NCBI GenBank assembly: GCA_000004695.1
Contig: CM000150.2
Coordinates: forward strand, 736,001 to 800,000
Origin: Dictyostelium discoideum
Taxonomy: Eukaryota
Length of the DNA: 64,000 nucleotides
Reading direction: 5' to 3'
In this document: piece after piece, positions 1,329 to 64,000 of the stretch
Layout of the letters: every line of letters starts with the position of its first letter
Numbering within the stretch: position 1 is the first letter of the stretch
Position numbers and translations under genes: made by a program
The notes under the pieces: generated by a model
The model's database searches: none
Seen by the model: the letters and a program-made list of their open reading frames with translations, nothing else
What the model was told of the DNA's origin: nothing

Positions 1329-4300
1329 GCTCAAAAATCAACTTTATAACATGGAATTGTAGAGGATTCACTGAAAACCCAAACAATCAACACAATTCCT
1401 ACCAAAAAGCTGTTGACACACTACAACTACTTATATCAAAACTTCCACCTCGTCCAACAATCTCAATACTCACTGAACTCAATTCATCACCATTACAACT
1501 TAAACATGATTTTCCCGATCACATCATCTCTGTCACCAAACGAGGAAATGGTGTAATCATCATTAACCATAACCCAAACACACTCAAACTCAAACACATA
1601 TCAACAATTGATGGTAGAGCTATTTTAGCAGACGTTATATTTCCAAATCAATTACCAATTGGTATTCTTGGAATTTACGCACCAGCATCAAATAATACCA
1701 TCAAAAAGAATTCATATGCAACTTCACTACAAACACTTCTCCACAACCACTCAACAAACCCAATACCAAACCAATCCCAACATGTATCTATTATCGCAGG
1801 AGATTTCAACTGTATCCACAACGACAATTCACTATTAGATGATATTATCCAATCCTACACATACCAACACCATCTAATTGATCAAGGTGAATTTAAAAAC
1901 ACTCCAACTCATACACATGGCAACAGATTAGATAGAATATATACTCAATACAATAGAATAGACCCTGAAAATATATATACACAAGTCCACCAAATTCCAT
2001 CTTCATTATCAGATCATAATCCAATATCAACAACAATTTCTTCACCTTTTCAAATAAATAAACATAAGAAAAGATGGATATTATCACCTGGTACTGCAAA
2101 TGACCATGAAGCAATCAATATTATCAATCATTTAATAACTAATCACAATAACACATCAATCAATCAATTTACAAACTGGTCAAAAGTAAAATCAAAAATT
2201 ATAAAAACTCTAAAAAACTATCAATATAACAAAGACAAACAAACTCAACGTGCAAAACAAATACTATTAGAAAAAGCAGCAAAATTCAAACATCTTGAAG
2301 AACAATGCATCGCTGAATACAATATTATATGTAACAAAAACAAACTACATCAAAACCACACAAACATATTAAAAAAACATATAAATGGAGAAATACCTAG
2401 CAAGTATCTATCAGCAATACTAAACAAAAGATCAAAAGATGCAAAAATTGAATCAATCCAATATGGTAACATCATTACATCCGACCCCGACCAAATTGAA
2501 AATGCGTTTGTTGAATTCTACACAAATCTATATAGCTTACAAATATGTTGTCCAATTACTCACCAGCTCATGCCAAACACATGGCCCATCATAAAAAATG
2601 AATATTGGAATGGTTTAGACTCACCATTTATACAAGATGAAGTTGAAGCTGCAATTAAAACCTGTAACCCCAACAAATCACCCGGTCCAGATGGCGTTAC
2701 AAATGCATTCTACATTAATCATTTAAACCAAGTTAAACCAATTCTCACTACATTATTCAACGATATACTAGAAAATCCTCACCACATCACAACAGAATTC
2801 ACAGAAGGTCTTATACACACAATATACAAGAAAGGCAACCCCTTACTCATATCAAATCGTCGTCCCATTACACTTCTAAACACTGATTACAAGATCCTCT
2901 CAAAAGTAATCAATGCACGTCTTCTGAGAATACTTCCTTTCATCATCAACAACAACCAAACTGGTTTCGTACCCCACAGATTCATCATAGACAACATCAT
3001 CAACATCAATGAATTAATCAACTACCTCAAATCTAAAAACCTCCCTGGTATCATCACACTATTTGACTTCTTTAAAGCATTTGATTCTATCTCTCACGAT
3101 AGCATTAAAAGAACATTAATTCATATTGGTATACCAATAAAATTAATAAATTTAATCCACAAGCTATTATCTGACTCACAAGCAAAAATTTCAATTAATG
3201 GTAAAACGACCAGAAAATTCGATATTAAAAGAGGTGTAAAACAAGGTGACCCAATCTCAGCCACTTTATTTGTAATTGTAATTGAAATATTAGCAAGAAC
3301 AATAAATGCAGACAATTCAATAATTGGATTACCAATTTCACCCAATCCACAAATTAAAATTAAATTTACCCAATTTGCAGACGACTCTACAACATACAAC
3401 ATCAACTACGAACAACAACAACAATCAATCAAACATTTCGATAATTTCTGCGCTTCAACATCATCATCATTAAATTTTGACAAAAGTGCAATAATAGAAA
3501 TCAACCCCCACAAAATCACTGATAAACACATAATAAACAACATTCCACAATCAAAAAGAATACCAATAACCAAAAAAGATCAATCAGAAAGAGTTCTTGG
3601 CTATTTCTTTAATCATAATGGTTTACATAGGAAATTACCAGAAACAATGAAAACACTGATTAAATCATTAGTGCTATGGAAAACTAGTGGCACAACATTA
3701 AAAACAAAAACAACCATCATAAACACCTACTCACTATCACCAATAACATATTTATCATACCTTGAAGAATTTACAAAAGATGAAGAAATTCAAATTAATA
3801 AATTAATCTCATGGTTTATGAATTCTCCCGCAAATTCTGAATCACCAACTCTCGATACCAATTCCATTGAAAAAAACACATCAACCATCCATTCACGTGC
3901 AAAAATACCTTTGATGTGTTATGATAGATCATTAAAACCATTAAAAGAAGGTGGTTGGGGTATGTGGAATATACAATTACGACAAGTTGCTCAAAAGATT
4001 TGGATATACAACAGATTTTTACAAATGCATAAATCTGCAAACAATTCAATATACATGATAAGTTGGATGGATCAAATCATCAACAAATCAATCTCTTCTC
4101 CATACCTTATAAAAATCAAAAAAGAATGGGAAAACTATGCAACTCAAATTGGACATCTAAAAGATAAAGTTCAAATCCTACAACCAATATTAACAAAAAA
4201 CCAACCCTCTCAAACATTAAACACAAATAATATTTCACTACCACCAACACTCAAAGAAATCTACTCGACAATACTAAACAATCACCAATGCAAATCAAAA

Positions 4301-5152
4301 GACTATATTGGCAAGAAATATTCAGATCTACTTCTTACTTCGCACCAACAATCAATACAACTATTATGGAAATACACATACGACCAACTTTTTGTCAAAA
4401 TTCAAAAATTAAAAGATCCAAAAGGCCGAGATACAATGCAAAGATTCCATGCTAGATGTCTTCCGATTAATCATCTACACAACAAAGTTTGCCCCATTTG
4501 CAACAATGAAATGAATAATGATCCCTATGGTCATTTGTTCTTCAATTGTCAGCACACAATCAACTTCATTAACCACGACAAATTAAAATATTTTATATAT
4601 AAAAATTGCAATGGAAACAAAAACTGGTCACTAACAAAAAACCAAACAACAAAATTATACACACTCATTTATAAACCACAAACAAACAACAAAGCATTTA
4701 AACCAGATCCAACTATCAATATTAATTTTCATTTTGCAGAAAACGCACAATATAAAAAATACAGGTTCAACTGGAATTATATAAACACAAATCTTGATCT
4801 AGTCAGAACACATGCATATTGGAACATAATCTCATTAGTTATTCAACAAATATGGATATGGTTATGCAAATCATTATTTGACATCAATATAACTCAATCA
4901 ATTGATAATTGGAACAACCAAATAAACAACACAACACTAGATTATGATATATTAAAATCAAAATGGCACAAGCTAATAAGATTGGAATATTCAAGAACTT
5001 TATCAAACTTTAACCAATACTCAATTAAAAACAACCTCACAAAAACTCAAAAAGAAACCCAATGGTCCGAAACCATCAAAAAATTTAAAAAAGAATGGAG
5101 CATAAACACAAATGAACCAATTCCAACAATTACACCACCAATTAATTATTAA
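1325..5152 (+). CDS. Retrotransposon ORF2: apurinic-like endonuclease + reverse transcriptase + C-terminal Cys/His (zinc-finger-like) domain
   Basis: APE motifs (WNCRGF, IAGDFNC, RLDRIY, SDHNPIS). RT motifs (SPGPDG, FVPHRFIIDNI, LFDFFKAFDSISH, KRGVKQGDPIS, QFADDSTTY = YxDD variant). C-terminal HARCLPINHLHNKVCPICN...YGHLFFNCQHT. 1275 aa, intact. Confidence 0.9.
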   Translation: MSSKINFITWNCRGFTENPNNQHNSYQKAVDTLQLLISKLPPRPTISILTELNSSPLQLKHDFPDHIISVTKRGNGVIIINHNPNTLKLKHISTIDGRAILADVIFPNQLPIGILGIYAPASNNTIKKNSYATSLQTLLHNHSTNPIPNQSQHVSIIAGDFNCIHNDNSLLDDIIQSYTYQHHLIDQGEFKNTPTHTHGNRLDRIYTQYNRIDPENIYTQVHQIPSSLSDHNPISTTISSPFQINKHKKRWILSPGTANDHEAINIINHLITNHNNTSINQFTNWSKVKSKIIKTLKNYQYNKDKQTQRAKQILLEKAAKFKHLEEQCIAEYNIICNKNKLHQNHTNILKKHINGEIPSKYLSAILNKRSKDAKIESIQYGNIITSDPDQIENAFVEFYTNLYSLQICCPITHQLMPNTWPIIKNEYWNGLDSPFIQDEVEAAIKTCNPNKSPGPDGVTNAFYINHLNQVKPILTTLFNDILENPHHITTEFTEGLIHTIYKKGNPLLISNRRPITLLNTDYKILSKVINARLLRILPFIINNNQTGFVPHRFIIDNIININELINYLKSKNLPGIITLFDFFKAFDSISHDSIKRTLIHIGIPIKLINLIHKLLSDSQAKISINGKTTRKFDIKRGVKQGDPISATLFVIVIEILARTINADNSIIGLPISPNPQIKIKFTQFADDSTTYNINYEQQQQSIKHFDNFCASTSSSLNFDKSAIIEINPHKITDKHIINNIPQSKRIPITKKDQSERVLGYFFNHNGLHRKLPETMKTLIKSLVLWKTSGTTLKTKTTIINTYSLSPITYLSYLEEFTKDEEIQINKLISWFMNSPANSESPTLDTNSIEKNTSTIHSRAKIPLMCYDRSLKPLKEGGWGMWNIQLRQVAQKIWIYNRFLQMHKSANNSIYMISWMDQIINKSISSPYLIKIKKEWENYATQIGHLKDKVQILQPILTKNQPSQTLNTNNISLPPTLKEIYSTILNNHQCKSKDYIGKKYSDLLLTSHQQSIQLLWKYTYDQLFVKIQKLKDPKGRDTMQRFHARCLPINHLHNKVCPICNNEMNNDPYGHLFFNCQHTINFINHDKLKYFIYKNCNGNKNWSLTKNQTTKLYTLIYKPQTNNKAFKPDPTININFHFAENAQYKKYRFNWNYINTNLDLVRTHAYWNIISLVIQQIWIWLCKSLFDINITQSIDNWNNQINNTTLDYDILKSKWHKLIRLEYSRTLSNFNQYSIKNNLTKTQKETQWSETIKKFKKEWSINTNEPIPTITPPINY

Positions 5153-5515
5153 TTACCTAATCTAAAATAACATACTATTTTAAATTCACAAAAACTAAAA
5201 AACCTAAAATAAATAAATAAAAATAACATACTAATTGTATACTACAATAGTTTATTTATATCAAAAAAAAAAAAAAAAAATAAATCGGGTCAAGTGTTCG
5301 ATTCTTTAAAAAGTAAAATAATTATCTTTAATATTGCCATGATAAAAAAACCCGTACCGCGATCAAGAGGATACAAGATACACGTGAAAAGTAATTCATC
5401 CTTTTCTATCCTTAATCTCGGTCAATTTTAACCAATCTTTCAAAAAAAATCACCAATCCACCACGATCTACAGATCTAACTTACCAAATCGCCGATTCAA
5501 AGGAATCCCATCGAG

Positions 5516-6766
5516 ATGAATTCCTACGCAGACGCGGCTAAAATGGCCAACCCCTCCACCCATATGGACGAGGCATCGGAGAACTTCATTAAGGAATTCT
5601 CCACAAAAACAGCAGAGATAAAGGAGACCTACCCCAAACTATCAATAGGCCTCAAAGACATCTCCAAATACTGCGAGACCATATTGAACATGACTGCGCT
5701 CTCAACCTACGAGAAGAACAACGGATTCTACCCAATTACACTCGAATTCCCCAAAATGGATCTCAAGGGGTTAGAAGAAATGAGAAAAACACTCTCAAAC
5801 TACGATATCCCAATCGACAAGATATACATAGGCAAAGGAACTAGAAAAATGATCCACCTGATGATTAAAAACGAACAATCTCTCCTAAATATCATTAGAG
5901 ATAGAAGCAAATTGGGAACCTTCATCACCTCCAGTAGAGACTTCCACGTCCTCACAGGAAGAGTAAGAATTCCCAGAGAAAAGGCAGGAATAGTGGACGC
6001 CCTCATCAAAACTGCCTTTGCAGAAGAAATACCCTATGCAATATACAATACTATATACTCCACCGACCACCTCATAGTATTCGGTCTAATAGAATGCAAA
6101 ATAGGCGATCAAATGAAATCTGGCCAACACATTACAGAAATCGCAAACTTTACCATCAGAACGGCCACCAAAACCTACTCCTCACAAAAGAAAAACAAGA
6201 AAGTAGAGACAAACAACACGGAGGAACCATTAGAAGATGAGATGACAGATCCTCCTAACACCCAAAACAGGATAGCAATCAAATCCTCTCAACCAAAACC
6301 ACAACAACAAACAAACAACCCAGCAAACAATAAGTCTGATAAACAATCAACCCAAGAGAAAAAAGCCCAATCAAAAAAGTCCTCTCAACCTCTTCCCCCC
6401 AAAAACCAAGCAGAATCTCAATCTGTCAAACCCACCACAACCACTACCACAACATCCAACGCCATCCAAAAAGACAATGCCAACAAAACGAGCACTAACA
6501 TCCATTCATCCTCGGAAAACAGAGAGAAGACACCAAACATCCCTCCATCACATAAACGCAAGAACGAGGAAATCCACTCAAACAACGAGGTCACCCAACT
6601 CTCACCAACAATAAACAGAAGCAACCCTTACATCCCATCCACCCCTAAGACACCTGTCAAAAAAGAAAGGAAAGGAATCATTGAGAGCTTCATAGAGAGT
6701 ATCTACCCTTCACCATCCAAACCGCAGCTATACGACTCCCAAGAGGAGATCGATATCATCTCATAA
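5516..6766 (+). CDS. Retrotransposon ORF1 protein (copy 2)
   Basis: 416-aa ORF. Its stop TAA shares one base with the ORF2 ATG (TAATG at 6764-6768). Basic/Ser-Thr-rich C-terminus. Confidence 0.65.
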   Translation: MNSYADAAKMANPSTHMDEASENFIKEFSTKTAEIKETYPKLSIGLKDISKYCETILNMTALSTYEKNNGFYPITLEFPKMDLKGLEEMRKTLSNYDIPIDKIYIGKGTRKMIHLMIKNEQSLLNIIRDRSKLGTFITSSRDFHVLTGRVRIPREKAGIVDALIKTAFAEEIPYAIYNTIYSTDHLIVFGLIECKIGDQMKSGQHITEIANFTIRTATKTYSSQKKNKKVETNNTEEPLEDEMTDPPNTQNRIAIKSSQPKPQQQTNNPANNKSDKQSTQEKKAQSKKSSQPLPPKNQAESQSVKPTTTTTTTSNAIQKDNANKTSTNIHSSSENREKTPNIPPSHKRKNEEIHSNNEVTQLSPTINRSNPYIPSTPKTPVKKERKGIIESFIESIYPSPSKPQLYDSQEEIDIIS

Positions 6767-9540
6767 TGGTAGTAATCAAAATCAACCAATGGAATGTCAG
6801 AGGTTGGGGCACTGACACCTCCTTCAAAAACAAAACAGACTTTATCAAATCCCAATCCCCCCCAAACTCATTGGCACTAACCATAGTCAATGAACTCAAC
6901 GCCGACGCAACACAAGCACACCAGCTATTTCCTGGCTCCATCATTAGCGCAACCAACAGAGGCAACGGAATAGGAATACTAAACCACAACAACCAAAACA
7001 TAAAACTCTCACCAATATTCATAATAGAAGGTAGACTAATAATATCAGACATTCTAATAAAAGATACCACAACGAGAATCTTGGCCATATACGCCCCGGC
7101 CCAACCTGATAAAAGAAAAACACTAGCTTCAACACTAAACAAACACTTCAACAACCAATACCACAACCTAACGTCTAACCCTAATAAAAACATCGACATC
7201 ATAGCAGGCGACTTCAACTGTTTAGACTTCAATGACAATCACACATCAAATGATGACCAAGGCAACTTGACAACACAATCCCCAGATGAGATGGCCACAG
7301 TAATCGAAGCCATCAGAATTTCAAATAACCTAATGGATATGGACCAACTAAATAAAAGACCCACCTTCTCAAGAACGATACACAACACAAACAATAACCT
7401 CACAAGAATCTTGGAAAGGAGACTAGACAGAATATACCTTAACAATAGCATAATCAACTACAGCCAATTATACTTAAGGAACCTAATCCCCCCAAAAATT
7501 AATGACATACCTCTATCAGATCACAACTTCCTATCAACCACCTTCACTCTACCCAACATACAGATGAACAAGCGCAGATGGAGATTAAAAAAATCCTCAA
7601 TCCTCTCAAGCATAATGCTTAAGAAAATAGACTTCCTACTTAACGATTATTCAAGGGAGCTGTCATCCAACCATAACTCTATTTCCTTCTCTCAACTCAA
7701 CAGCTTACTAAACAAAATAAAACAACTATACACAGAATTTCAAAAACAAAATGACTACAACAATAAGGCAAACATCAAAAATCTAATCTCCCTACTAGAG
7801 ACAGAATTTAAAGACCAAGCCTTCGCAACCCTTTCAGCAATAAATGAATCTAAAAAAAGAGAAGAACAACTTAAACAAGAATTGAACAACTATTGCGAAG
7901 AAACCTCACTCAAGTACATCTCCGCGAGAATCAAGAAAAGACACAATGATTTCACCATCAACGCAGTAAAAGATGCACAAGGTAGAACAATCAACAAACA
8001 GGAATTGATCGAAGAAGAATACGTAAAATATTACTCAAATCTTTATGACTACAAAGAAGATGACCCACCATCTCATTATGAAATGTTGGAAAATTGGACA
8101 GTGACCAGGGACTCAACATGGGACAACCTTGAAAATGAATTCACATCACAAGAGATCCTAGAAGTAATAAAACAATTGAACCCACACAAATCTCCAGGCC
8201 CAGATGGAATTCCAAACTTATTCTACATAACACACAAAGAAAAACTAGCTCCAATACTGGCCTCAGCATTCAACGACACTCTAAGAAATCCTCATCTAAT
8301 TAGCAAAAATTACAAAGAAGGCCTCATTATCACGATACCTAAAAAGGGAGACCCCGAACTAATCAAAAACAGAAGACCAATTACACTGGCTAACTGTATA
8401 TATAAAATCCACTCAAAACTAATAAACAATAGAATAATCCCAATACTAACGAAAGTGATCAACCACAATCAAAAAGGTTTCGTACCAGGCAGATTCATTC
8501 TAGATAATATCATATCAATGAACGAATTAATCAACTATTGTAATGATAAAAGAATTAACGGAATAATTACACTATATGATTTCGAAAAAGCTTTTGACTC
8601 GATCTCACACGGTTCAATACTCAGATCACTACAACACATCAACATTCCAACCAATATAATCAACCTGATAATGAATCTACTCACCAAATCTGAAGCAAGA
8701 ATTGAAATTAATGGTAGAACTACTATACCCTTTGAGATCAAAAGAGGAGTTAAACAAGGAGATCCACTATCACCCACCCTGTTCGTCCTTGTAATAGAGG
8801 CTTTAGCTAGAAAAATTTTACAAGATGACCGAATTACTGGCCTTCCTCTAAACAACAGCAACCACAGAGAGAAATTCCAAAGCTTTGCAGACGACTCGGC
8901 TTCAATGGTCCCAGACTTTCAACAACTTGAATTAGTACTACAACACTTCAATTCATTTTGCAAAGCCACTTCCTCAAAACTAAACATCGACAAATCTTCA
9001 TCAATTCTTATAGGCAACCCAGACAATACCAACCAAAGAATTCCAATATCTACAAATCCAGAAAGATACTTGGGATACTTCTTCACAGGCAAAGGGATAA
9101 CAAGAAAAATGCCAGAAATATTAAACACAATAAGATCATCCTTAGTACTATGGAAAACCACTGACTCAACAATCAAAACCAAAACCAACATCCTCAAAGC
9201 ATTCGCACTCTCTAAATTAACCTACTATTCATATGTAGAGAACTTTAAGGAAGAGGAATTAAACCAAATCAATAAATTAGTCGAATGGTTTTTATCGGCA
9301 CCAAACAACAAAAATGCTAGTGGATTTCAAGTTATTAATTTAATGAGAACCAAAAGAGCAAGATACCCACTAAAAGTAGGGGGCTGGAACATTTGGAATA
9401 TAGAATTGAGACAACTGGCGCAGAAACTTTGGATCATAAACCAATTCATCCTAGCACTAGAAACCAAACAAACAAACTCATCTCATCACAAAAGCTGGGA
9501 ATATCAAATCCAAAAAACAAATTCACATCCAGATACCTAA
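6766..9540 (+). CDS. Retrotransposon ORF2 (copy 2), APE endonuclease + reverse transcriptase portion
   Basis: WNVRGW, IAGDFNC, RLDRIY, SDHNF (APE). SPGPDG, FVPGRFILDNI, LYDFEKAFDSISH, KRGVKQGDPLS, SFADDSAS (RT). Ends in a stop at 9540 after sequence that has diverged from copy 1. Confidence 0.85.
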   Translation: MVVIKINQWNVRGWGTDTSFKNKTDFIKSQSPPNSLALTIVNELNADATQAHQLFPGSIISATNRGNGIGILNHNNQNIKLSPIFIIEGRLIISDILIKDTTTRILAIYAPAQPDKRKTLASTLNKHFNNQYHNLTSNPNKNIDIIAGDFNCLDFNDNHTSNDDQGNLTTQSPDEMATVIEAIRISNNLMDMDQLNKRPTFSRTIHNTNNNLTRILERRLDRIYLNNSIINYSQLYLRNLIPPKINDIPLSDHNFLSTTFTLPNIQMNKRRWRLKKSSILSSIMLKKIDFLLNDYSRELSSNHNSISFSQLNSLLNKIKQLYTEFQKQNDYNNKANIKNLISLLETEFKDQAFATLSAINESKKREEQLKQELNNYCEETSLKYISARIKKRHNDFTINAVKDAQGRTINKQELIEEEYVKYYSNLYDYKEDDPPSHYEMLENWTVTRDSTWDNLENEFTSQEILEVIKQLNPHKSPGPDGIPNLFYITHKEKLAPILASAFNDTLRNPHLISKNYKEGLIITIPKKGDPELIKNRRPITLANCIYKIHSKLINNRIIPILTKVINHNQKGFVPGRFILDNIISMNELINYCNDKRINGIITLYDFEKAFDSISHGSILRSLQHINIPTNIINLIMNLLTKSEARIEINGRTTIPFEIKRGVKQGDPLSPTLFVLVIEALARKILQDDRITGLPLNNSNHREKFQSFADDSASMVPDFQQLELVLQHFNSFCKATSSKLNIDKSSSILIGNPDNTNQRIPISTNPERYLGYFFTGKGITRKMPEILNTIRSSLVLWKTTDSTIKTKTNILKAFALSKLTYYSYVENFKEEELNQINKLVEWFLSAPNNKNASGFQVINLMRTKRARYPLKVGGWNIWNIELRQLAQKLWIINQFILALETKQTNSSHHKSWEYQIQKTNSHPDT

Positions 9541-10469
9541 AAGAGAACTTAGACGAATGGAACAAAATAAGAATCAAAAAAGCAATCTTCAACAATAATC
9601 TCACATCCATAAAAAACGAAAATGGACAACCACTTTCACTGGCAGAATGGTATACCACAATTCAAGACCAAAATCCAACCATCCCTAAAACGGAATTCCA
9701 ATCATCTCTAAACTTAAGAGGCTACAGCTATAATCAACTCTTCAACAACATACTGAAGATAAAAGACCCTAAAACAAGAGACACAATGTTTAGATTCCAT
9801 GCCAGATGCCTTCCAATAAACTACCTTCACAACAAACAATGCCCACTCTGCAAAGAAGATATGAGCAAAGACCCATACGGTCACCTGTTCTTCTCATGCA
9901 AGAAAACAAAACAATTCATAAAAATAAATAAACTCAAAAATTTCATCTATATTACCACAGGAAAAGGTAAAAACTGGCATCATACAAGAATTAGGCAAAA
10001 TAACAATTTCATTAATAGAATAACTCCAAAATTATCACCGACAGCCAAAAAAGATCAAGAAGTGAATGCAGATTACGCCAACCACAGATTCCACAAAGAA
10101 TACTTTGAATGGAACTATAAAGCAATAGACTATGATCTAACCAGATCATTCGCATATAGAAACCTAATGGCCCTTATCCTCCACAACATTTGGATTTGGA
10201 TTTGCAATCAAATATACAGTGAAGATCCTTTAACAAATGAATCATTATCATACAGCTCCCTTCTAAAGAAATGGCACAAATTGGCCACTCTAGAATACAT
10301 CAAAAAAGCAAAAGATCTGAAAAACTTATCAGCAAAAGACCATAATAATTTCAAAGATCCTAAGATCCTTCTCACCTCAACGATCAAGCTAAGAAAAACA
10401 ACAGCTAATTACTATTGTATTCCAGAATCATCTCTCCCAAATATTATATCTTTTGATCAATTCATATGA
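9393..10469 (+). CDS. Retrotransposon ORF2 (copy 2) C-terminal segment in a shifted frame (apparent frameshift; Cys/His motif HARCLPINYLHNKQCPLCK...YGHLFFSCKKT)
   Basis: Homology to copy 1's ORF2 C-terminus resumes in another frame (SRYLKENLDEWNKI vs SPYLIKIKKEWENY). The frame switch lies between ~9450 and 9525. Confidence 0.6.
   Translation: MEYRIETTGAETLDHKPIHPSTRNQTNKLISSQKLGISNPKNKFTSRYLKENLDEWNKIRIKKAIFNNNLTSIKNENGQPLSLAEWYTTIQDQNPTIPKTEFQSSLNLRGYSYNQLFNNILKIKDPKTRDTMFRFHARCLPINYLHNKQCPLCKEDMSKDPYGHLFFSCKKTKQFIKINKLKNFIYITTGKGKNWHHTRIRQNNNFINRITPKLSPTAKKDQEVNADYANHRFHKEYFEWNYKAIDYDLTRSFAYRNLMALILHNIWIWICNQIYSEDPLTNESLSYSSLLKKWHKLATLEYIKKAKDLKNLSAKDHNNFKDPKILLTSTIKLRKTTANYYCIPESSLPNIISFDQFI

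Positions 10470-10567: not shown

Positions 10568-10603
<36 letters not shown>

Positions 10604-10839: not shown

Positions 10840-10876
<37 letters not shown>
10604..10876 (+). mobile_element. Short poly(A)-terminated unit (about 240 bp + A32) abutting the poly(A) of TRE copy 2; probable 5'-truncated retroelement tail or SINE-like insertion
   Basis: Unique AT-rich segment bounded by the A31 tract (10573-10603) and a second A32 tract (10845-10876). Confidence 0.35.
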
Positions 10877-10879
<3 letters not shown>

Positions 10880-14005: not shown

Positions 14006-14032
14006 TGATTTAAGGGTTGTTCAACAAAATTT

Positions 14033-14105
14033 CGCCTAGACATGGGATCGAACCATGGACCTAGCGGTTAACAGCCGCTCGCTCTGCCTACTGAGCCATC
14101 CAGGC
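14033..14105 (-). tRNA. tRNA-Asn (anticodon GUU), 73 nt, no intron
   Basis: Reverse complement GCCTGGATGGCTCAGTAGGCAGAGCGAGCGGCTGTTAACCGCTAGGTCCATGGTTCGATCCCATGTCTAGGCG folds as a cloverleaf: 7-bp acceptor stem (one G-U), D-stem GCTC/GAGC, anticodon stem AGCGG/CCGCT with loop CTGTTAA, T-stem CATGG/CCATG with TTCGATC loop, discriminator G. Confidence 0.9.
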
Positions 14106-14149
14106 ATTTTTGATGAAAATTGTAATATTTAAATGATATTGTATGTAAA

Positions 14150-14902: not shown

Positions 14903-15300
14903 TAAACCAACCCCTCTTTTAGAGACCCTGTAAAAAAAAAAAAAATAAAATAAAATAAAATGAGATCTAGCATCTCAAGGAGAAGCAAATAATAATTGCG
15001 TTATCCAATTCAAAAAAAAAAGTATGTAAAAACACTCAAATAAAACAATTCAAATATGTCAATCGCGAAGCAGACGATAAATAAGATTAGAAAAAGGTTT
15101 GGACAAAAAGATGTTTAAATCAAAAGTATTAAAAAAAAGTAAACACCCCCTCTTTTAGAGACCCTGTAAAAAATATTACAAATAAAATGAGATCCAGCAT
15201 CTCAAGGAGAAGAAAATAATAATTGAGTTATCCAATTATTCAAAAAAAAAAAAAAGTATGTAAAAAATTCAATTCCTTTTGTCTTTGAAGAAAATGTGAT
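14700..15300 (+). repeat. Tandem, degenerate ~230-330-bp repeat units each beginning near gtatgtaaaaaca and ending in an A-run (unit 14700-15020, unit 15021-15256, partial third)
   Basis: 14715-14990 aligns with 15033-15240 (caattcaaata[c/t]gtca...gacgataaa...gatgttt[t]aatcaaaagta...cctcttttagagaccctgtaaaaa...atgagatc[t/c]agcatctcaaggagaag.aaataataattg.gttatccaatt). The listed ORF 14640-14933 lies inside a unit and is not a gene. Confidence 0.6.
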
Positions 15301-52000: not shown

Positions 52001-52306
52001 ATTTTATCTTTTTTTATTACTATTATTATTATTATTATTATTTTGAAATGCGATATAGGATAGTTTATCTCAGTTTGAAATTAAATAAAAAAATTAAAAA
52101 AAAAAAAAAATAAATGAAAAAAAAAAAATAAAAAAAAAAAAATAAAAATAAAAAAGAAATTAAAATTAATTTTTTTTGGGAAATTTGGATGGGTGTTTAT
52201 TGTTTATTATAATAATAAAAATCCAATCGTTTTGGTATTGAAAAACACAAAATTGGTGTTTGGTTGATTTTATTTTTATTTTTTTATTTTTATTTTAATT
52301 TAGATA

Positions 52307-52933
52307 TTACATTTTAAAAATTCTATAACCAACAATATCTTGATATGTATAATATGATTTTGTAAAACCAGGATCATTAACATACACATAATCAGATTCA
52401 GTTGTATCATAACCAGTTGCTAAAACGAAATGTGAACCTTGATTTACATTAATTATTAAAATTAAATCTTTTTTATTTAACATTGAAATGATATCATCCA
52501 TTGTATATTGTGAAGATGGAAATGAACCAACATAATTAATTTTATTTGAAACATTTTCTAATGATGATTCAACTAATAAATTATCACCTTCATAACCACT
52601 ATTACTCTTTAACCATGTATTCAATGAACCTGGATTTGAAATTCCATCATCAATTGTAATACCTTTACCTCCAATTGCCATCGAACATGAAGACATTAAA
52701 CAACCAACATCACAAATTGTTTCTGTAATAATTAAATCATTACCCCAACGTGAATCACACTTTTAAAATAAATAAATAAATAAATAAATACAATACACTA
52801 AATTTGTTTTTTTTTTTTATTTTTCAAAAAAATAACCTACTTGTTTATAAAGTGGATATGAAAATGGAATAACTGGTTTTGATGATACATTTCCAATTAT
52901 AAGGATAATAGCTAAAAATAAAAATAATTTCAT
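52307..52933 (-). CDS. Small secreted Cys-rich protein with papain-like / peptidase C39-like (BtrH_N-type) features; exons 52933-52841 and 52759-52307 (~181 aa)
   Basis: Exon 1 is a signal peptide MKLFLFLAIILIIGNVSSKPVIPFSYPLYKQ|gtaggt. Exon 2 CDSRWGNDLIITETICDVGCLMSSCSMAIGG... with a His-containing NVNQGSHFVLATGYD, suggesting a Cys/His dyad arrangement. Confidence 0.4.
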
Positions 52934-53208
52934 TTTTTTTTTTTTTAATTAATATTAATTTTTTATATTTTTAAATTAAAAATAAAAACCTTTCCAAATT
53001 TTGAAAAAAAAAAAATAAAAAAAATAAAATAAAATATTTTTTATTAAAAATATCTAAAATGAATCTTTGGAATTTTTAAAAATACCTCAAAGATCCTGGT
53101 AAATAAAAAAATAAAATAATATCTTGTTCATTTTTTTTTTTTTAACAAGCGACCTTTGGTAATGTAATTTTTTTTTTTTTTTTTTATTTATCTTTTTTTT
53201 TTTTATTT

Positions 53209-53976
53209 TTAACACAAAGAATTTGCTTTTAATGAAAATTTATCAAAGGTTGTGTTTGGAAGATTTAATTTTGAAAGTTCAAGTTTTACCCATTTTTTTG
53301 ATTTTTGAATTGCAAATTCATATTCAATTTTTTCATTTGGGAAAAGTTTTATTATTTTTGAAATTACTATTAAGGTAACCCAAATATTATATAATTGATC
53401 TGATGATAATTCCACAGGTGCATTACCAATTGAAATTCCCATTTGAGAAATGGTTGACTTTGTCCATGATCCATTTGCTCTTTGAATTCTTAACAAATCA
53501 ATTAAATCAAATGATGATGATGATTTTGTCTTGGATGATGTTGTTTTTGTAGTTTCTTCTTTGGTTTCACTTTTCTTTGATTTTTTAACAGACTGTCTTG
53601 AAATATCTTCATCTACATCGGAAAATCTTTTTTTTGTAATTGTTGTTGTTGTTGTTGTTGTTGGTGCTGCGGTTTTACTTTTCTTAGATTTGGTTAACAG
53701 ACATTGTGATTTATTTTTAGTTGCACTAACTTGATTTTCAAAACTAAACTGATCAATTATGTCAATGAAATCCATAGATTCTAAAGTTGGTTTAGTTGAT
53801 TCACACTTAACAATGAATGAGGTATGTTTTGAAAGTATTCCATACTTTTTACTCAATTCAACAATTCTAGTTTTATTATCTTTTTTTTTCTTTCTTTCTT
53901 TCTCTTCTAAATCTTTAATTTGATGATATGCTGATAATCTATGAATTTGATTTTGATTTGTTGTTGCTGTTGTTGT

Positions 53977-54067
<91 letters not shown>

Positions 54068-55845
54068 ATTATACAATTATTTTTTAAATCCAATTCAATT
54101 GGAATTGATAATTTATCACCTTTTGGACCATCACAAGTCATTGTAATAATTAATGGTTTTGAATTTTCAATTGAATCATTAATGATATCTTTTAATCTTG
54201 TTGATAATGACTCAATCATTAAATAAACGATCATTCTTTCTTGATAAAATAATGGTCTAATTTGTGAAGGTGATTGAATTATAATATCCTCCTTACAATT
54301 ATTATTATTTTTATTTTTATTTTTATTATTTGAAAATAATGTTGATAAATCTAATTTAATATTTGAAAACATTGGTTTTAATGAAATATTTAATAATTTC
54401 ATAACTTGTTTTTCAAAATTATCATTATCTGTAATGAATTCATAATGACCTTTACATGCATTTGATAAACCAATTATTAAATCAATATCTACACTATCAC
54501 CAATACCATAGGTGAATATACGAGTTGTATTTGACTCTTTTGAGAGGTAATGAATGATTTTATCTCTATGAGGTGCTTCACCATCAGTTAGAATGAAAAG
54601 TTGTCTTGGATATTCTGGATTTGGTGGTGATGATAAAATATTTTTAATTGGTGTTAGTAATTCAGTTCCACCTAAATTCGCTTCAATCGATTGAATGTAT
54701 TTACTAAGACATTCTAATGTTTCATCATTGTAATCTCTTGATACTTTAAATACTTTTTTAAAAGATGATCCGAAACAAACCACATTCACCCTATGTTGAT
54801 TCTCATTTAAACTTCTAATTATTATTTCCATTGCACGTTTTACTTTCCTCATTGGCTCGCCAACCATTGAACCTGAGCAATCAATTAAAAATATAAATTC
54901 ACTCTTTTGATTCATATCTTCAATTTTAATATCTTTAAAACTTGAATAATAATTTATCGAAACTGCTAATGAATTTTCAATTTTATTATATTCAATCATT
55001 GATTTTGGTTCGTCGTTAATAATACTTGGTTGAATAATTAAAACTAAAGAATCCTCAATACTATTTAATTTATCATTAGATTTTATTTTAATCTCTTTAT
55101 TATTACTATTATTATATAATACTTTAATAACATCATCATCACCATCATCACTACCACAACCAGTATTGCTACTATTAATATTTAAAATTCTTTTAGAATT
55201 ACCATACCAATTTATAATTGATTCAATTGAATTTGATAATTTTATTATAATATTTAGATTAAAATTAAAGTTATAGGTTGGGAAAAGACTATGATGAAGG
55301 TAATAGTGTAGTTGTCCATTGATGTGAGTACCAATTTCTGATGTGATAGTTAATGTAATTTTAACAGTTTCATTGGGTGGTAGATTACCGATATTAAGGT
55401 TAAAGAAATCGAGATCTTCTATTGACGATTTACTTGCTAAAAATGATTGACCACCATTTGCAATTGTGTCATTATAATTGTTTAATGCTTTTTCATGTTC
55501 TTTAATTTTACCAATTAATACTACAACTTTATCTTGAGATTCAACTCTAAAATCTGTAATAATCCATGTTGGATGCAATGGTATTTTATATCTTGCTTCA
55601 ATTGGTGTTTTTGAATCATTTGAATAAATTTGAGTCCATTTCGATGTTGAACTACAATCATTAATTTCTGTATCGATTGAAAATTTGGTTAATTTAAATA
55701 CTTTTGATTTCTTTTTATTATTTTCAGTAAGAAATAAACCTCTAGATTTCTTTTTTAAATTATTTTCTAATAGTCTATAATAGTTATAATAGTTGGCTTC
55801 TTTATATGAATGATTATTATTATTATCGTTATTATCGCTTGACAT
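53209..55845 (-). CDS. VIT (vault/inter-alpha-trypsin) domain + von Willebrand factor A domain protein, 878 aa, with (Ser)~36 and Thr-rich linkers
   Basis: N-terminal VIT-like region (IEARYKIPLHPTWIITDFRVESQDKVVVLIGKIKEHEKA). vWA MIDAS FLIDCSGSMVGEP...TDGE. Poly-S encoded by (TGA)n on the + strand at 53975-54068. Confidence 0.7.
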
Positions 55846-56298
55846 TTGTATCTAAAAACTAGTAATAAAAAAAAATATAAAATAAGTTCCCAATTTTTAT
55901 AGGAAAAAAAAAAATTAAAAAAAATCTTTTGGTTTTGAGAAAAACTCGAGTATTTATCGTATAAATTTGAGTTCCCGAGTGTTGAGGTCACACAATATTT
56001 TTTTTTTTTTGAAGTTCATAATAAATTTCATTAATCGGTAATAATTATTATTTTTTTTTTTTTATTTATTTATTTATTTATTTATTTGTTTGTTTGTTTG
56101 TTTGTTTGTTTATTTATTGTTTATTTATTTGTTTATTTATTAACAATATTTTATTTTTTAAAATTCATAGCAAGCGGGTTCAATATTCATTTTTTTTTTT
56201 TATTTTTTTTAATTTTTTTTTTTTTTTTCCATTTTTTAATTTTTTTTTTTTTTTTTAATTTTTTTTTTTTTTTAATTTTTTTTTTTTTAATTAAAAAA

Positions 56299-59200
56299 AT
56301 GATGAAAAGCGATGAAGGTGTGAGTGGGAATAGTAATAATAATAATAATTATAAATTCAAAGATAATACATTTAGAAAGTATGGAGTTGAAGTTGTAGCA
56401 TATGATAATAACAACAATAATAATAATAATAATAATAATAATGATGATAATAATACAGTAACAGTGAATTCAAGAGGATTTCATATTTCAATACATCCAT
56501 TTTCATTTAGAAATAAATTAACTATTAATCAAAATAATGGTAGTATTGGAGGATCATCATCATCATCATCAACATCAAATTCAGTATCAACACCAAAACC
56601 ACAATCATTCTATGTCGATGATGCAGGTATTGCTAAACAATTGAATCAATCTGTATTTGATATCTTATCAAGATCACGTTATTTATCTTCATTATCACAT
56701 GAGAATTTAGCTGAATTCATTGCTGCTGAACCTTCTCAAAAACATCATGGTAATTATTTATTTATTATTATATTTATTAATTGATTGAGATTCATCAAAC
56801 TGAACTGAACTGAATACACTCACCAATTAGTATACATACTAATTTTACATATTTATTATATAATACATTAATAATGTATTTAGATCAAATGTTAATTGTT
56901 TCAGAAGACTATAAGAATTCATTAGAGAAACAAATAGAGATACAAGCGAAAAGACAAACACCAATCCCATCCAATACAATCGGAAGATATGCTTATCAAA
57001 TATTGAAAGCATTATCATATTTACATAGTCAAGATTTAACTCATAGAAGTTTATCATTGGATAATATTAAATTAGATGATAATGTATGTGTTACATACAA
57101 TTTAATTTATATAATAATAACTATTATTATTTAAATATTAATTTCTTTTGTTTTATTATTATTTACTACGAAATTTCGTATTATTTTATATTTAGAATCA
57201 AATTAAATTAACAAATTATGGACTTTATTATTTATCAGATCATGGGGAGAATGTATCATTCCCAATTGGTAATTTATTATATCTTTCACCTGAATCAATA
57301 TTAAGAGGTGCAAAAGGATCATCAAATACCAAAGCAGATGTATGGGCATTAGGTTGTATTTTATTACATATTTGTTTAGGTTATTGTATTTGGCAAGATA
57401 ATAATCCATCAATTGTAACAAATAGAATATTACATTTATCTGGTTATTCAACAACTCAATCTTTTAATTCAATTTCTAAATCATTTGAACAATGTGAATT
57501 AAAAAAAACAATAATAAATGAAAAACAACATGAAGAATATGAAGAATATGATGATGATGAAGATATAAGTGAAGAAGAAAAGGAGAAAAGAATTAAAGAT
57601 ATTAAATTAAATAATAGAGATAATATGAATAATTTTATAAATTCATTAAAAAGAGAAGAAAAAGAAAATAGTGATAGTAATAGTGGTAGTAGTAATAGTA
57701 ATATAGGTATAGGATTAAATGGTTTAGGTAAAGAATTAATTGAAATAATTGAACAATGTTTAATACCAAATCCAATGGATAGACCAGATAGTGAAACATT
57801 ATTAGATCATCCTTACTTTAATGAATATAAAAATATTGATCCATATCAATTACAATGGATAATTAAACCATTTACAAAGAGTTGGGATTTACCAGATAGT
57901 TTAGAATCTTTAACTTTAAAAGAGATTGAATCCTATGGACATATTGGTAGTGATAATAATGGTGGTGGTGGTGGTGGTGGTGGTGAATCTGATAGTGATA
58001 TTTACTCTGGTAAAGAGATTTATTACTTTTGGAAATTATTAGGTGGTAATATTGAAAAGGAATTAGTTAATAAAGGATTTGCAAAAGCATCACCATCGGT
58101 TCATAAATTACCATTATATGTACCAGTTAAAGCCTCATTAACTGAATCAACTAATAGTGGTTTAAATTCACCACAACCCTATCAACATCAACATCATCAA
58201 CATCAACATCAACATCAACATCCAAATATAATTAAATCAAAAAATTCAACAGTATATAATAATGAATTTTGTTTAGTTGAATTAAGTAATGTTTTTTTAA
58301 AAATTAAAGAATCATTTAAATTATATGGTAGTAAAGTTTTTGAAGAAGGTATTGAACAATCAAATAATAATAATAATAATAGATTTAATAATATTGAAAA
58401 TAATATTGAATTACAAATTATAATCATTAGAGAATTTCATAAATTATTATATCAATATCAATATGATGATCCAACATTATCACAACCAAAGATATATAGA
58501 TTAGCAAAATTATTTGTACCACCAATTTTAAGAGGTGATATTTGGTCTTCGATTTTAGGTGTAAATGAAAGAGAAGCAAAACAATTGTATAATAGTATCA
58601 ATTTAGATGTTAAAGGTCCAAATGATAAACAGTTTGAATTGGATATACCAAGATGTCACCAATATCATCCATTATTATCATCAAGACAAGGTCATGTACA
58701 ATTATTCAAGATTTTAAAGGCATGGTCATTATTGAATTTAGAGAAGGGTTGCTATTGGCAAGGATTGGATAATGTGGCTTCACCGTTTTTAGTACACCAT
58801 TTCTTTAATGAACCAATTGCATTCGCTTCGTTGAAGGCTTTTGTTGACAAGTATCTCTCCATTCTTTATGTGCCAAATAACCATGCTGCCCTATCAGAGA
58901 TTATGTTGATCTATCAACAACTATTGGCTTATCACGATCCAGAGTTATTGAATCACTTGATGGATATTCAATTGGATCCAAACCTTTATTCAATTCCTTG
59001 GTTTATCACTGTGTTTGCTCATATCTTACCAATTGATAAATTGGAGATACTTTGGGACTCGATTTTATTATGTCCTTCAAGTTTACCAAATTTCATTGCT
59101 GCCTCTATGATCATCCAATTCCGTGATTCAATTTTAAAGATGAATTTTGAAGATGGTATAACAATGATGTCCATGATTCCATCGGTTGATGTTCATAAAT

Positions 59201-59646
59201 GTGTTTCCGACGCTTTATCAATGTTTAATAAAACACCTCTAAGTACAACTGTCACTAAATTCGTTTCAAATACTGATCAAGAGCTATGGTGGATGCAAGA
59301 AGTACCCTTTGAAAAAAGAAAATTAGAATTATTCCCACGTATTGATATTCATGATTTAATCAATGATCAACAAAAGGTAATACTAGATATTAGAACACCT
59401 TTACAATTTCAACAAATTCATTATCCTTCCTCTATAAATGTTAATCCAAAGTTATCCAAACTTCAGCAACAAATGGAACAATATAAAGGTCAACAAATTG
59501 TTGTAATTGCCCCAAAAGATCAAGGTGTAGATTTCACAAATCAATTAATTCAATGGAAATTCCCTTTTGTTTCAATGTTAAATGGTGGTATGGATTCTTT
59601 AGAACATGGTGCTCATAGTTTATTAATAATTTCAAATAAAAATTAA
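56299..59646 (+). CDS. tbck: TBCK-like protein: degenerate protein-kinase (pseudokinase) domain + TBC/Rab-GAP domain + C-terminal rhodanese domain; exons 56299-56749, 56905-57083, ~57196-59646 (~1026 aa)
   Basis: Kinase C-lobe remnants YLHSQDLTHRSLSLDNIKLDD, NYG in place of DFG, SPESILRG, DVWALGCILL. TBC region LDIPRCHQYHPLLSS...LFKILKAWS...YWQGLDNVASPF. Rhodanese-like VILDIRTPLQFQQIHYPSSINV...IVVIAPKDQG. Splice phases 1/0 verified. The third-exon start coordinate is +/-1. Confidence 0.7.
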
Positions 59647-59720
59647 TAAAATATTAATAATAATACCAAAATACATACACAATTATATTATATTTTATTT
59701 TATTTTATTTTTTATTTTTT

Positions 59721-61355
59721 TCAATATAAATTAAATTCATATTTCTTTTTAAATATTTTATTAAATATTTTATTTATTAATTCTGATTCAACTATATTTA
59801 ATTTACCAATTAATGGAAGTAAGAATTTAAAACAATTGTTATTTAATTGATAATGTTTATTTGAAATCCAAATTGATTCTAATGAATTTGGTGGTAAAGA
59901 ATTTATTGAAATTGGTGTTTCATCATTTAAAATTATAATATGTTTAATTGAAATTGGTAACCATTTTTTATGAACTGGTTGTTTAAATTCTAAACCTAAT
60001 TCTAAAAGTTCCAATTGTTGTGGTAATGTATTTGAAGTGATTGTTGAATTATAGTTACCAATTCTTAAACATTTTAAATTTGTAAAAACTTTAAAATCTT
60101 TAACTGGTTTAGTATAGGATTTATAATAAAATTCACTTAAATCTAATTTTATTAAATTTTTTAAACAAGTTTGTGAATGGTAATCTAATTTATAATCACT
60201 TTCAATGATATTCACTTTAATTGATTTAATACTTTGAAATTTATTTAAAAATAATTTTGATGATTTTTCAAATATCCAATAAAATAAGAAAATTGGTGTT
60301 GTTGCATTTAAATTTAGTGAACTGAATTGTGATGATAACAATTGTGGTTGTGGTGGTGCTTGAAATTGACCATGAAATGAGTTATAAAAAATTGTTAAAT
60401 TTGTAACTGATGGTGGTATCATGGATATTATATCTATGTTTGAGTCATTTAGTTTTAATAAGTTTGATATTTCTTGATTTGTTGATAAATTACCATTTTT
60501 ATTATAAACTTTTAATTGTAAATGTTTCATTCTCCAATCATTAAAATAAGCAAATGGTTGAGTTCTTAAATTTGTAATTTTAAGTTTTTCAAGTTTATTA
60601 GGTAGAGTTGTACCACTCTTGATTAAACACATATTATAGTCTCTTGGTAATGTTAATTTCTTTAATGATTGTGGTAATTCATTTGAACCAATTTCATGTT
60701 TAAAACTTGAATTTGAAGAAAACTTAATCTGTTCAATTGAATTAGGTAAATTTTTTATTGATTGATTGAATGAATGTCCAAAAATAATTACTTTTAAAAA
60801 TTTTGGTAAAACATTCTCATTTAATTCTTTATTAAAATAAGTTCCAAATTTTAATTTTCTTAATGATATTGGTAAAATGTTAACACCAATTTCTTGATTA
60901 AAAATTGAACTAAATTCTAATATTGTTAAATTTGAAAATATTGATAAACTGTTATTTGTTGACGATACAAGTGGTATATCTGGTTGATTATATACATTAA
61001 AAATTAAATGTGTTACAGGTGGTAAATTTTCACATAAATTGAAACTATTTCTAATATTATTTGGTTGATATAAACTTATTGATTCTATATAGTTTGGTAA
61101 ATTATTTAATTTTTCACTAATTTCTTCTTTTTTAATATCAACAAATTTTATAAATAATGATTTTATAAATTGTTTATTATCTTTTAAGAATTGTTGTTGT
61201 GAAAAGTTGACATCAACTGAAAATGAAAATAAATTAAACATTATTAAATATTTAAAAATTAAATTCTTTAAAACACAGTTTCTCCATATTTTAAAAAATA
61301 ATAAAGAATTAACATCATCATCATTATCACTAACATCAATCTCTATCTCATTCAT
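59721..61355 (-). CDS. FNIP-repeat-containing protein (544 aa)
   Basis: Repeats FNQEIGVNILPISLRKLKFGTYFNKELNENVLPKFLKVIIFGHSFNQSIKNLPNSIEQIKFS. C-terminal region paralogous to the 42921-43960 pseudogene. Confidence 0.75.
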   Translation of the reverse strand: MNEIEIDVSDNDDDVNSLLFFKIWRNCVLKNLIFKYLIMFNLFSFSVDVNFSQQQFLKDNKQFIKSLFIKFVDIKKEEISEKLNNLPNYIESISLYQPNNIRNSFNLCENLPPVTHLIFNVYNQPDIPLVSSTNNSLSIFSNLTILEFSSIFNQEIGVNILPISLRKLKFGTYFNKELNENVLPKFLKVIIFGHSFNQSIKNLPNSIEQIKFSSNSSFKHEIGSNELPQSLKKLTLPRDYNMCLIKSGTTLPNKLEKLKITNLRTQPFAYFNDWRMKHLQLKVYNKNGNLSTNQEISNLLKLNDSNIDIISMIPPSVTNLTIFYNSFHGQFQAPPQPQLLSSQFSSLNLNATTPIFLFYWIFEKSSKLFLNKFQSIKSIKVNIIESDYKLDYHSQTCLKNLIKLDLSEFYYKSYTKPVKDFKVFTNLKCLRIGNYNSTITSNTLPQQLELLELGLEFKQPVHKKWLPISIKHIIILNDETPISINSLPPNSLESIWISNKHYQLNNNCFKFLLPLIGKLNIVESELINKIFNKIFKKKYEFNLY

Positions 61356-61407
61356 TTTGAAATTTTTAAAAAAAAAAAAAACAATGTTTATTTTTAATGA
61401 ATTGATT

Positions 61408-61456
<49 letters not shown>

Positions 61457-61689
61457 CTTTTAGCCATTTTCTTTGATGATACAGATATATTCAAAAAAGG
61501 ACATTTTTTATACCAGTAATAAAAATCATTTTGCAATCTTCAAAGTAGTTTCTTGAGACTTTATATTGATTACCAAGAGTGTACACATACCAGGTTGAAA
61601 TTGGGGAAATAAATCCAAATCATTGTTAATTTTCTTTTCTCAATTTGATATGATTTTAAACAAATCTTTTTAAAAAAAAATAAAAATAA

Positions 61690-61890
61690 AATAAAAAAAT
61701 AAAAAATTAAGAATGACCAATCATCTTAATTTAAAAAAAAAAAATAAAAATAAAATAAAAATAAAATAAAAATAAAATAAAAATAAAATTAAAAATGACC
61801 AATCATCTTTATTTAATAAAAAAAAATAAAAATAAAATAAAAAAATAAAAAATTAAGAATAACCAATCATCTTAATTAAAAAAAAAAAAC
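61690..61890 (+). repeat. Three direct copies of a ~65-80-bp unit (A-rich (ataaaa)n + core aagaatgaccaatcatcttaatt) upstream of the 62097 gene
   Basis: Cores at ~61710, ~61793 and ~61856 (taagaatgaccaatcatcttaattt / aaaaatgaccaatcatctttattt / taagaataaccaatcatcttaatt). Each core contains a CCAAT motif. Confidence 0.6.
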
Positions 61891-62096
61891 AGATATATTC
61901 AGCAGTACACAACTTACTTTTCTTTTATTAATGAAAAAAAATTTTTTTGAAGTTCATAGGATTCAGGATTTTTTTATTTTGAAGTTCGTTGATTTCAAGA
62001 TTTTTTTTTTTTTTATCAAAAAAAATTTTTTTTTTTTTCAAATTTTTTTTTCAAATTCAATATTTTTTATTTTTTATTATTATAATTTATCTTTAA

Positions 62097-63005
62097 ATGG
62101 AACGAATGATAAATTATTTCTCTCCTTCAAAGGGAACAAAAAAACTTCAAAATGCTGTCAACGATCCAAATATAGATCAAGGATTACCATCTCATATTTT
62201 GCTTGTTAAAGTTATTGATCAGGGTAATAATAGAACTGGAAATAAAATAAGAAGAAAATTGTATAGATTTATGAAAGACACAAATAATGTTGGGGGTAGA
62301 ATTTGGTATCCAAGAGATCATGCCGAAACCTCTCAAATATATTGGGGATTCTTTGGACAGGATATTATAACTCAAGCATGGGCAGTAAACTTAATTTTGG
62401 ACTTTGAACGTTCAACGAAAATCTCTATCCCAGGAAATTGGAGATTTACTGTGGTTTTATCTAAACCTGTGGTGGATTCTGATGTAATCGGTAACCTATT
62501 AAACAAATTTAATTTCGAAGAAAACGAATTCGCCAAATTGAAAGAAGATTTTAGTGAGTTGAGCAATGCCTATGAACAACTAAAAAAAGAAGTCAAAGAA
62601 AATGAACAACTAAAAAAACAAGTCATAGAAAATGAACAACTAAAAAAAGAAGTAAAAGAAAATGAACAACCAAAAAAAGAAGTCATAGAAAATGAAAAAC
62701 CAAAAAAAGAAGTCATAGAAAATGAACAACTAAAAAAAGAAGTCATAGAAAATGAACAACCAAAAAAAGAAGTCAAACAAAATGAACAACTAAAAAAAGA
62801 AGTCAAAGAAAATGAACAACCAAAAAAACAAGTCAAAGAAAATGAAAAACCAAAAAAAGAAGTCATAGAAAATGAACAACTAAAAAAAGAAGTCAAACAA
62901 AATGAACAACCAAAAAAACAAGTCAAAGAAAATGAACAACTGAAAAAAGAAGTCAAGGAAAATGAAAAACCCAATAATTTTTCTTTTTCTGTTAAAAAAG
63001 AATAA
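62097..63005 (+). CDS. Hypothetical protein with N-terminal globular region and ~13 tandem 11-residue repeats (K-K-E/Q-V-K/I-E-N-E-Q/K-L/P-K)
   Basis: 302-aa ORF. Near-perfect 33-bp tandem DNA repeats at 62575-62975 (aaaaaagaagtcaaagaaaatgaacaactaaaa variants). Confidence 0.6.
   Translation: MERMINYFSPSKGTKKLQNAVNDPNIDQGLPSHILLVKVIDQGNNRTGNKIRRKLYRFMKDTNNVGGRIWYPRDHAETSQIYWGFFGQDIITQAWAVNLILDFERSTKISIPGNWRFTVVLSKPVVDSDVIGNLLNKFNFEENEFAKLKEDFSELSNAYEQLKKEVKENEQLKKQVIENEQLKKEVKENEQPKKEVIENEKPKKEVIENEQLKKEVIENEQPKKEVKQNEQLKKEVKENEQPKKQVKENEKPKKEVIENEQLKKEVKQNEQPKKQVKENEQLKKEVKENEKPNNFSFSVKKE
62575..62975 (+). repeat. 33-bp tandem repeat array (~12-13 units) within the CDS
   Basis: Direct reading of the sequence. 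Units differ only at 2-4 positions (gaa/caa, aaa/ata, cta/cca, caa/aaa). Confidence 0.9.
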
Positions 63006-63335
63006 AATTAAATAAAATTTTCTATTGGTATAGAAATTTATTATGCCTTTTAGGTATGATCACTTACATATTTCAAAAAACATCTACTCTTTTTAACTTA
63101 TTATAATTGTGAAAACAATATCAAAAAAAACAAAATTTTTTTTTTTCTTTTATTAATCAAATTTGTAATTTTTTGAAAAAAAAAGAATAATAATAATATT
63201 ATAATTAAAATAATTTAAAAATTAAAAAAAATTAAATAAAATTAAATATATTATTTCTTTTGATATAGATTTTTATGAAATTTTTTACTTGGGGGAAAAT
63301 TTTATTTATATTATTATTATTTTTTTTTTTTATAA

Positions 63336-64000
<665 letters not shown>

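Follow-up and report, generated by a model that had tools for sequence, protein, structure and literature searches.

A proline-interrupted 30-bp coding minisatellite and upstream tandem duplications at the uncharacterised Dictyostelium discoideum gene DDB_G0268344

Several described systems offer points of comparison for DDB_G0268344, a gene of Dictyostelium discoideum that encodes a strongly charged, internally repeated tail. SAH domains of the ER/K type need long proline-free runs, and the PEVK spacers of titin have a proline content far above that of the tail described here. As for promoter elements, YRRCCAATSR represents the extended NF-Y consensus; promoters of Dictyostelium are not known to have CCAAT boxes as a general feature, and a literature search returned no specific work on such promoters in this genus. 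In MAP1B, a highly basic region in which KKEE/KKEVI motifs occur at irregular intervals mediates microtubule binding (PMC2115962). Within D. discoideum itself, coding repeats are abundant and variable (PMC3460934), and it is the large and familiar group of coding minisatellites and low-complexity repeat proteins that gives the best fit to the array of DDB_G0268344. As in this group, the array consists of very similar in-frame units and belongs to an AT-rich genome known for its many coding repeats (PMC3460934), and homopolymer and trinucleotide arrays are plentiful in the same window (the whole 64,000-nt stretch of DNA that was analysed). The array differs from the usual trinucleotide poly-N/poly-Q tracts in that its 30-bp unit encodes a mixed-charge decapeptide. 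It is a real feature, and a fairly ordinary one in this repeat-rich genome.

The window lies on chromosome 1 of D. discoideum AX4 (the match sits on a 4.92-Mb contig), has a G+C content of about 22% and contains long poly-A/T tracts as well as AAT/ATT arrays. The plus-strand ORF under study is an exact-sequence match to DDB_G0268344 (EAL73625.1 / XP_647289.1 / UniProt Q55G95), a single-exon gene that runs from ATG to TAA, encodes 302 aa and is annotated as "hypothetical protein". The ORF boundaries and the 13 repeat copies reported in the initial annotation were both borne out (Table 1). The cluster of the protein at 90% identity contains two sequences only, those of AX4 and of a second assembly considered below, and a literature search with the identifiers of the gene, its protein and its neighbour DDB_G0267762 returned no paper that mentions them. 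DDB_G0268344 is thus an annotated yet uncharacterised gene of a model organism. Judged from its sequence, it is a genuine protein-coding gene for which no relative could be detected in dictyostelids; we regard the coding sequence as real because a remote homologue of its N-terminal part exists and because only one plus-strand frame is open through the array (by reading of the unit sequence). It shares a 741-bp intergenic region with the divergent FNIP-repeat gene DDB_G0267762. Farther out, a VIT+VWA-domain protein gene (53209-55845, minus strand) and a RabGAP-TBC+rhodanese protein gene (57625-59646, plus strand) are cellular genes of ordinary kinds that show no obvious connection in function with DDB_G0268344. 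On the other side, a very long run of 93 ATT/AAT trinucleotides (63538-63817) lies in the region of a minus-strand gene (408 aa) called in the second assembly, and probably encodes a poly-Asn tract typical of D. discoideum.

Table 1. Positions of the features discussed, counted from the first nucleotide of the window
Feature	Position	Strand	Evidence
Gene DDB_G0268344	62097..63005	+	ORF; exact-sequence look-up; 100% identity to KAM9943870.1
Neighbour DDB_G0267762, FNIP-repeat protein, divergent	59721..61355	-	ORF, Pfam, exact-sequence look-up
Three ~73-nt tandem units, cores 61715-61727, 61797-61809, 61861-61873	61671..61889		Repeat finders; consensus match; same in second assembly
32-bp unit, 2.1 copies (TTTTGAAGTTCATAGGATTCAGGATTTTT), 85-150 nt upstream of ATG	61945..62012		TRF, repeat finder
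N-terminal globular domain, aa ~31-124, predicted beta-alpha-beta(-beta)-alpha-beta, ferredoxin-like	62187..62468	+	AlphaFold2 models
Pro-free predicted helix, aa ~142-191, with 3-4-3-4 pattern, into units 1-3	62520..62669	+	AlphaFold2, hydrophobic spacing, proline positions
13 in-frame units, 30 bp / 10 aa, KKEVKENEQP	62583..62972	+	TRF, repeat finder, unit alignment
Retrotransposon ORF, APE-type endonuclease + reverse transcriptase	1325-5152	+	
Retrotransposon ORF, reverse transcriptase	6766-9540	+	
Poly-A tract after first retrotransposon	5264-5281		
Poly-A tracts after second retrotransposon	10575-10603 and 10846-10877		
tRNA-Asn(GTT), the window's only tRNA gene	14032-14106	-	

Tandem Repeats Finder (TRF) placed the coding array at 62572-62970, with a period of 30, 13.3 copies, 91% matches, 0% indels and a score of 644, the highest of any tandem repeat in the 64-kb window, and an independent repeat finder gave a 30-nt spacing throughout. 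In codon register, the 13 units of 10 residues cover aa 163-292 and follow the consensus AAAAAAGAAGTCAAAGAAAATGAACAACCA, which encodes KKEVKENEQP. The period had initially been given as 11 residues (33 bp), which must be corrected to 10 residues (30 bp): the unit then noted, KKEVKENEQLK, takes in the first K of the next unit. The units had also been called near-perfect, a description that agrees with their mean pairwise DNA identity of 91% and complete lack of indels but not with strict identity, since only units 5 and 10 form an identical pair. The array contains 37 K, 34 E, 15 Q, 13 V, 13 N, 7 P, 6 L and 5 I; K and E together make up 55% of the repeat residues and P, E, V and K together 70% of the repeat region, whose 130 residues carry a net charge of about +3.

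Eight of the 30 columns of the unit vary. Five are two-state sites, namely nt 7 (G/C, giving E/Q), 14 (A/T, K/I), 16 (G/C, E/Q), 25 (C/A, Q/K) and 29 (T/C, L/P), and the other three carry singleton variants; these belong to units 3, 12 and 13, most of them towards the array's 3′ end. The five two-state sites occur in 11 combinations among the 13 units, and all four possible combinations were seen for six of the ten pairs of sites. The simplest explanation of this mixing is that units within the array have repeatedly undergone unequal exchange or gene conversion with one another; together with the high identity and lack of indels, the mixing supports the earlier suggestion of a recent expansion or concerted evolution. 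The array would have arisen by recent slippage or unequal exchange, its units still being homogenised and reshuffled. When we counted the differences of the units from the consensus, we found 20 non-synonymous against 3 synonymous ones. This excess argues against strong purifying selection on the units at those positions, and could reflect a constraint that is relaxed or diversifying, and not a conserved function.

Had the repeat region been an assembly artefact, it might have collapsed or expanded elsewhere; in the assembly GCA_054883475.1 (record CM142508.1) it has done neither. The protein is identical over 299 of 299 residues (the gene being annotated there from Met4, which gives 299 aa), and comparison of the DNA with positions 52091-64000 of the window (11.9 kb) showed zero substitutions and a single gap of 15 T. 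The upstream CCAAT units with their three cores are present and identical as well. The sole difference over the 11.9 kb lies in the shared intergenic region, in a poly-T tract of about 48 nt (61409-61456) that is 15 nt shorter in GCA_054883475.1. Because the length of this tract differs, the two assembly records are not copies of each other; the coding array and the upstream units have therefore been assembled identically twice and are not an assembly artefact. Given the zero substitutions over 11.9 kb, GCA_054883475.1 very probably represents the same laboratory lineage as AX4.

The N-terminal part of the protein had been described as having no obvious family, and our searches agree. Pfam gave no match at E≤10 for the N-terminal domain or for the relative described below, a PDB profile search with the domain returned a best match at E=0.058 that is unrelated, and no relative of the domain turned up in scans of metagenome and viral contigs. 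When aa 1-162 were compared by phmmer with 1.84 billion representative proteins, we recovered the protein itself, one credible relative (P0004, E 7.9e-7) and two chance matches to repeat proteins; no dictyostelid orthologue was found among the predicted proteins of this set, its scope being annotated genes. The relative shows 34% identity over 109 residues by BLASTP and is a partial 301-aa protein (L002:3-908) on a 929-bp JGI metagenome contig, in which the module is C-terminal and follows an acidic low-complexity region of about 180 residues. Because this contig has a G+C content of about 52% and an AATAAA past the stop codon (by reading of the sequence), it would appear to be a eukaryotic transcript. 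The low-complexity region fused to the module is highly charged in both proteins, acidic in P0004 and K/E-rich in DDB_G0268344. An AlphaFold2 model from the two-sequence alignment (pLDDT 49.6) predicts the order beta (33-41), alpha (46-62), beta (79-86), alpha (90-107), beta (115-122), to which a single-sequence model adds a short strand at 68-70. The domain is probably ferredoxin-like according to these low-confidence models. Compared with known ferredoxin-like domains (uS10, bS6, ACT-like, M20 peptidase dimerisation), it has only 3-12% identity to the fold matches; the model being of low confidence and the fold very common, this plausible fold class points to no specific family or function.

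Upstream of the gene, the reported triplication of a CCAAT-containing unit proved to be real. The three A-rich copies of about 73 nt lie at 61671-61743, 61753-61825 and 61817-61889 (start spacings of 82 and 64 nt), 236-382 nt upstream of the ATG of DDB_G0268344 and 360-506 nt from that of the FNIP gene. Copies 1 and 3 are 97% identical, while copy 2 has 81% identity to copy 1, and in each a stretch rich in A leads into TTAAGAATGACCAATCATCTTAATT or into a form of it altered at one or two positions. The window contains the 13-mer core RACCAATCATCTT three times in all, once in each unit. Plain CCAAT is too frequent in the window to be informative. All three cores, however, fit the extended NF-Y (CBF/HAP2-3-5) consensus, with plus-strand matches at 61714, 61796 and 61860 (TGACCAATCA twice and TAACCAATCA once); the six other YRRCCAATSR matches of the window are all inside long ORFs, so that these three are the only intergenic ones in 64 kb. 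The triplicated island may plausibly represent a multiplied transcription factor binding site of the NF-Y type, and its units could serve DDB_G0268344, DDB_G0267762, both or neither. Between the two arrays, we also observed a 32-bp duplication that the first reading had overlooked; with it, the promoter region has two duplicated islands of complex sequence. The AT-rich intergenic DNA of the window abounds in low-scoring tandem duplications. The coding array and the upstream triplication are its only long-period arrays scoring above 150 (the others scoring at least 150 are all trinucleotide), and a stretch of 1.3 kb takes in both; this closeness, a post hoc observation, is mildly notable and is the sole link that we found between them.

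The repeats had initially been read as heptad-compatible, forming a coiled coil or an elastic linker. A heptad coiled coil implies a sustained 3-4 spacing of a/d positions and a continuous proline-free helix. In the array, successive hydrophobic residues lie at intervals of 4 and 6, or of 10 in the proline units, and the repeats thus cannot form a heptad seam; prolines at aa 192, 202, 222, 242, 252, 272 and 292 end 7 of the 13 units. A 3-4-3-4 pattern was found only at F145, L148, F152, L155, Y159, L162 and V166, where it runs into unit 1. A long alpha-helical coiled coil, serving as a rod or stalk, would agree with this genuine pattern at aa 145-166, with the richness of the region in K, E, Q and L, and with the helices that AlphaFold2 draws from the single sequence at 142-194, 226-236 and 248-286. 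We nevertheless consider such a rod very unlikely, because the repeat has a period of 10, not of 7 or 11, the alternating 4/6 spacing leaves no continuous seam and proline recurs every 10-20 residues from aa 192. Moreover, the sole moderately confident stretch of the model is aa 160-190 (pLDDT 64-80), whereas pLDDT falls below 50 over most of aa 191-302, with low confidence in the proline-containing units. Based on composition, proline spacing and low pLDDT, the region after aa ~191 is most likely a K/E-rich disordered tail or a series of short helical segments, in which form the role of an elastic or flexible linker is possible. The predicted helix that precedes it, with its three heptads, could mediate dimerisation. 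ER/K SAH domains and titin PEVK spacers share with the tail a very high K+E content, a high proportion of P, E, V and K, and the idea of a charged extensible spacer, and on inspection some i/i+4 K-E pairs of the SAH kind are present in the unit. However, the longest proline-free stretch in the array is about 30 residues (aa 163-191), unlike the long E/K runs of SAH domains, the tail has only 5% proline, unlike titin PEVK, and neither has sequence homology with it; both would be functional analogies only. The nearest resemblance in sequence motifs is to the microtubule-binding region of MAP1B, which likewise has repeated KKEV(I/K) motifs in a lysine/glutamate-rich segment. Indeed, the array holds KKEVI four times (units 4, 5, 6 and 10), KKQVI once (unit 2) and KKEVK six times, and thus multiple motifs of the KKEE/KKEVI type as defined in PMC2115962. 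From this likeness, and from the microtubule binding that the motif region mediates in MAP1B, one might propose that the tail binds microtubules or another polyanion. We find this highly improbable, given that the MAP1B region is highly basic and irregular while the charge of the tail is almost balanced and its 10-residue spacing exact, that a match of 4-5 residues is expected by chance in K/E-rich low-complexity sequence, and that none of the searches found homology. The resemblance would be a lead rather than evidence of membership.

Our preferred explanation, which we hold with moderate confidence, is that DDB_G0268344 encodes an alpha/beta domain, a helix of about 50 residues and a disordered charged minisatellite tail, and that local duplications, including an NF-Y-type island, have occurred upstream. 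The small globular domain at the N-terminal side, probably ferredoxin-like, would be followed by the helix with its three heptads, which could support dimerisation, and then by the strongly charged but near-neutral, proline-interrupted tail, which would be extended, disordered or segmentally helical and not a rod. Joined to the N-terminal domain, such a tail may act as a flexible spacer or as a weak multivalent electrostatic binding surface. The threefold and twofold units upstream would be local tandem duplications of the few islands of complex sequence that this very AT-rich, divergent intergenic region contains.

An alternative account would see in the array a tolerated, functionless minisatellite in a fast-evolving or barely expressed orphan gene, with the upstream repeats arising by neutral slippage and their closeness reflecting an unstable AT-rich region. 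The absence of a detectable dictyostelid orthologue among the predicted proteins searched is in keeping with it, as are the mostly non-synonymous unit differences, the frequent tandem duplications in the intergenic DNA of the window and the lack of literature on the gene. Yet the reading frame has been kept over 390 bp with no indels, the conserved remote homologue of the N-terminal domain indicates a functional fold, and the complex cores of the upstream units are nearly intact; we regard this neutral account as unlikely. In a further reading, the N-terminal module of about 100 residues might be a previously unrecognised, sparse eukaryotic domain whose two members are both fused to a charged low-complexity region, with tail length, set by minisatellite copy number, tuning its activity and a triplicated NF-Y-type enhancer driving the gene. 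This combination is quite doubtful.

The upstream units could also have been brought in from elsewhere. An exact 13-nt direct repeat, ACAGATATATTCA, was observed at 61481-61493 and 61889-61901, 408 nt apart; it brackets a 395-bp block (61494-61888) that holds the three CCAAT units and ends in A12, the second copy of the 13-mer lying immediately after this poly-A run. The block might then be a retroposed insertion with its target-site duplication, and non-LTR retrotransposons do occur in the window. When we searched the intergenic region against the window by BLAST, however, we obtained low-complexity A/T matches only; the 13-mer pair itself has an E value of 1.7 and is not statistically exceptional, as three other isolated 13-mer pairs within 500 nt are found in the window, and neither of the two retrotransposons has a 3′ end that resembles the block. 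The TRE elements of Dictyostelium integrate close beside tRNA genes, but the nearest tRNA gene is 47 kb away. Such an insertion is therefore extremely improbable. The two non-LTR retrotransposons form tandem copies at 120-10469 (plus strand), and their position near tRNA-Asn is in keeping with the TRE elements of Dictyostelium, which target tRNA genes. At 14911-14985, some 0.8 kb from the same tRNA gene, we observed exact direct repeats of 13-27 nt (e.g. CCCCTCTTTTAGA) that recur 227-236 nt further on, a cluster which may be a duplicated element or a transposon remnant.

Beyond annotation, the significance of these observations is small. The description of DDB_G0268344 changes from an 11-residue coiled coil to a K/E repeat of 10 residues that proline interrupts, its array is reproducible between assemblies, and a two-member orphan domain is flagged. 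The locus is placed on record as a coding minisatellite with two upstream duplications within 1.3 kb. Should its copy number differ among wild isolates, it could be of use as a convenient marker of strains or as a modest example for studying change in coding minisatellites, and the triplicated CCAAT island could be used to probe the function of NF-Y sites in Dictyostelium promoters.
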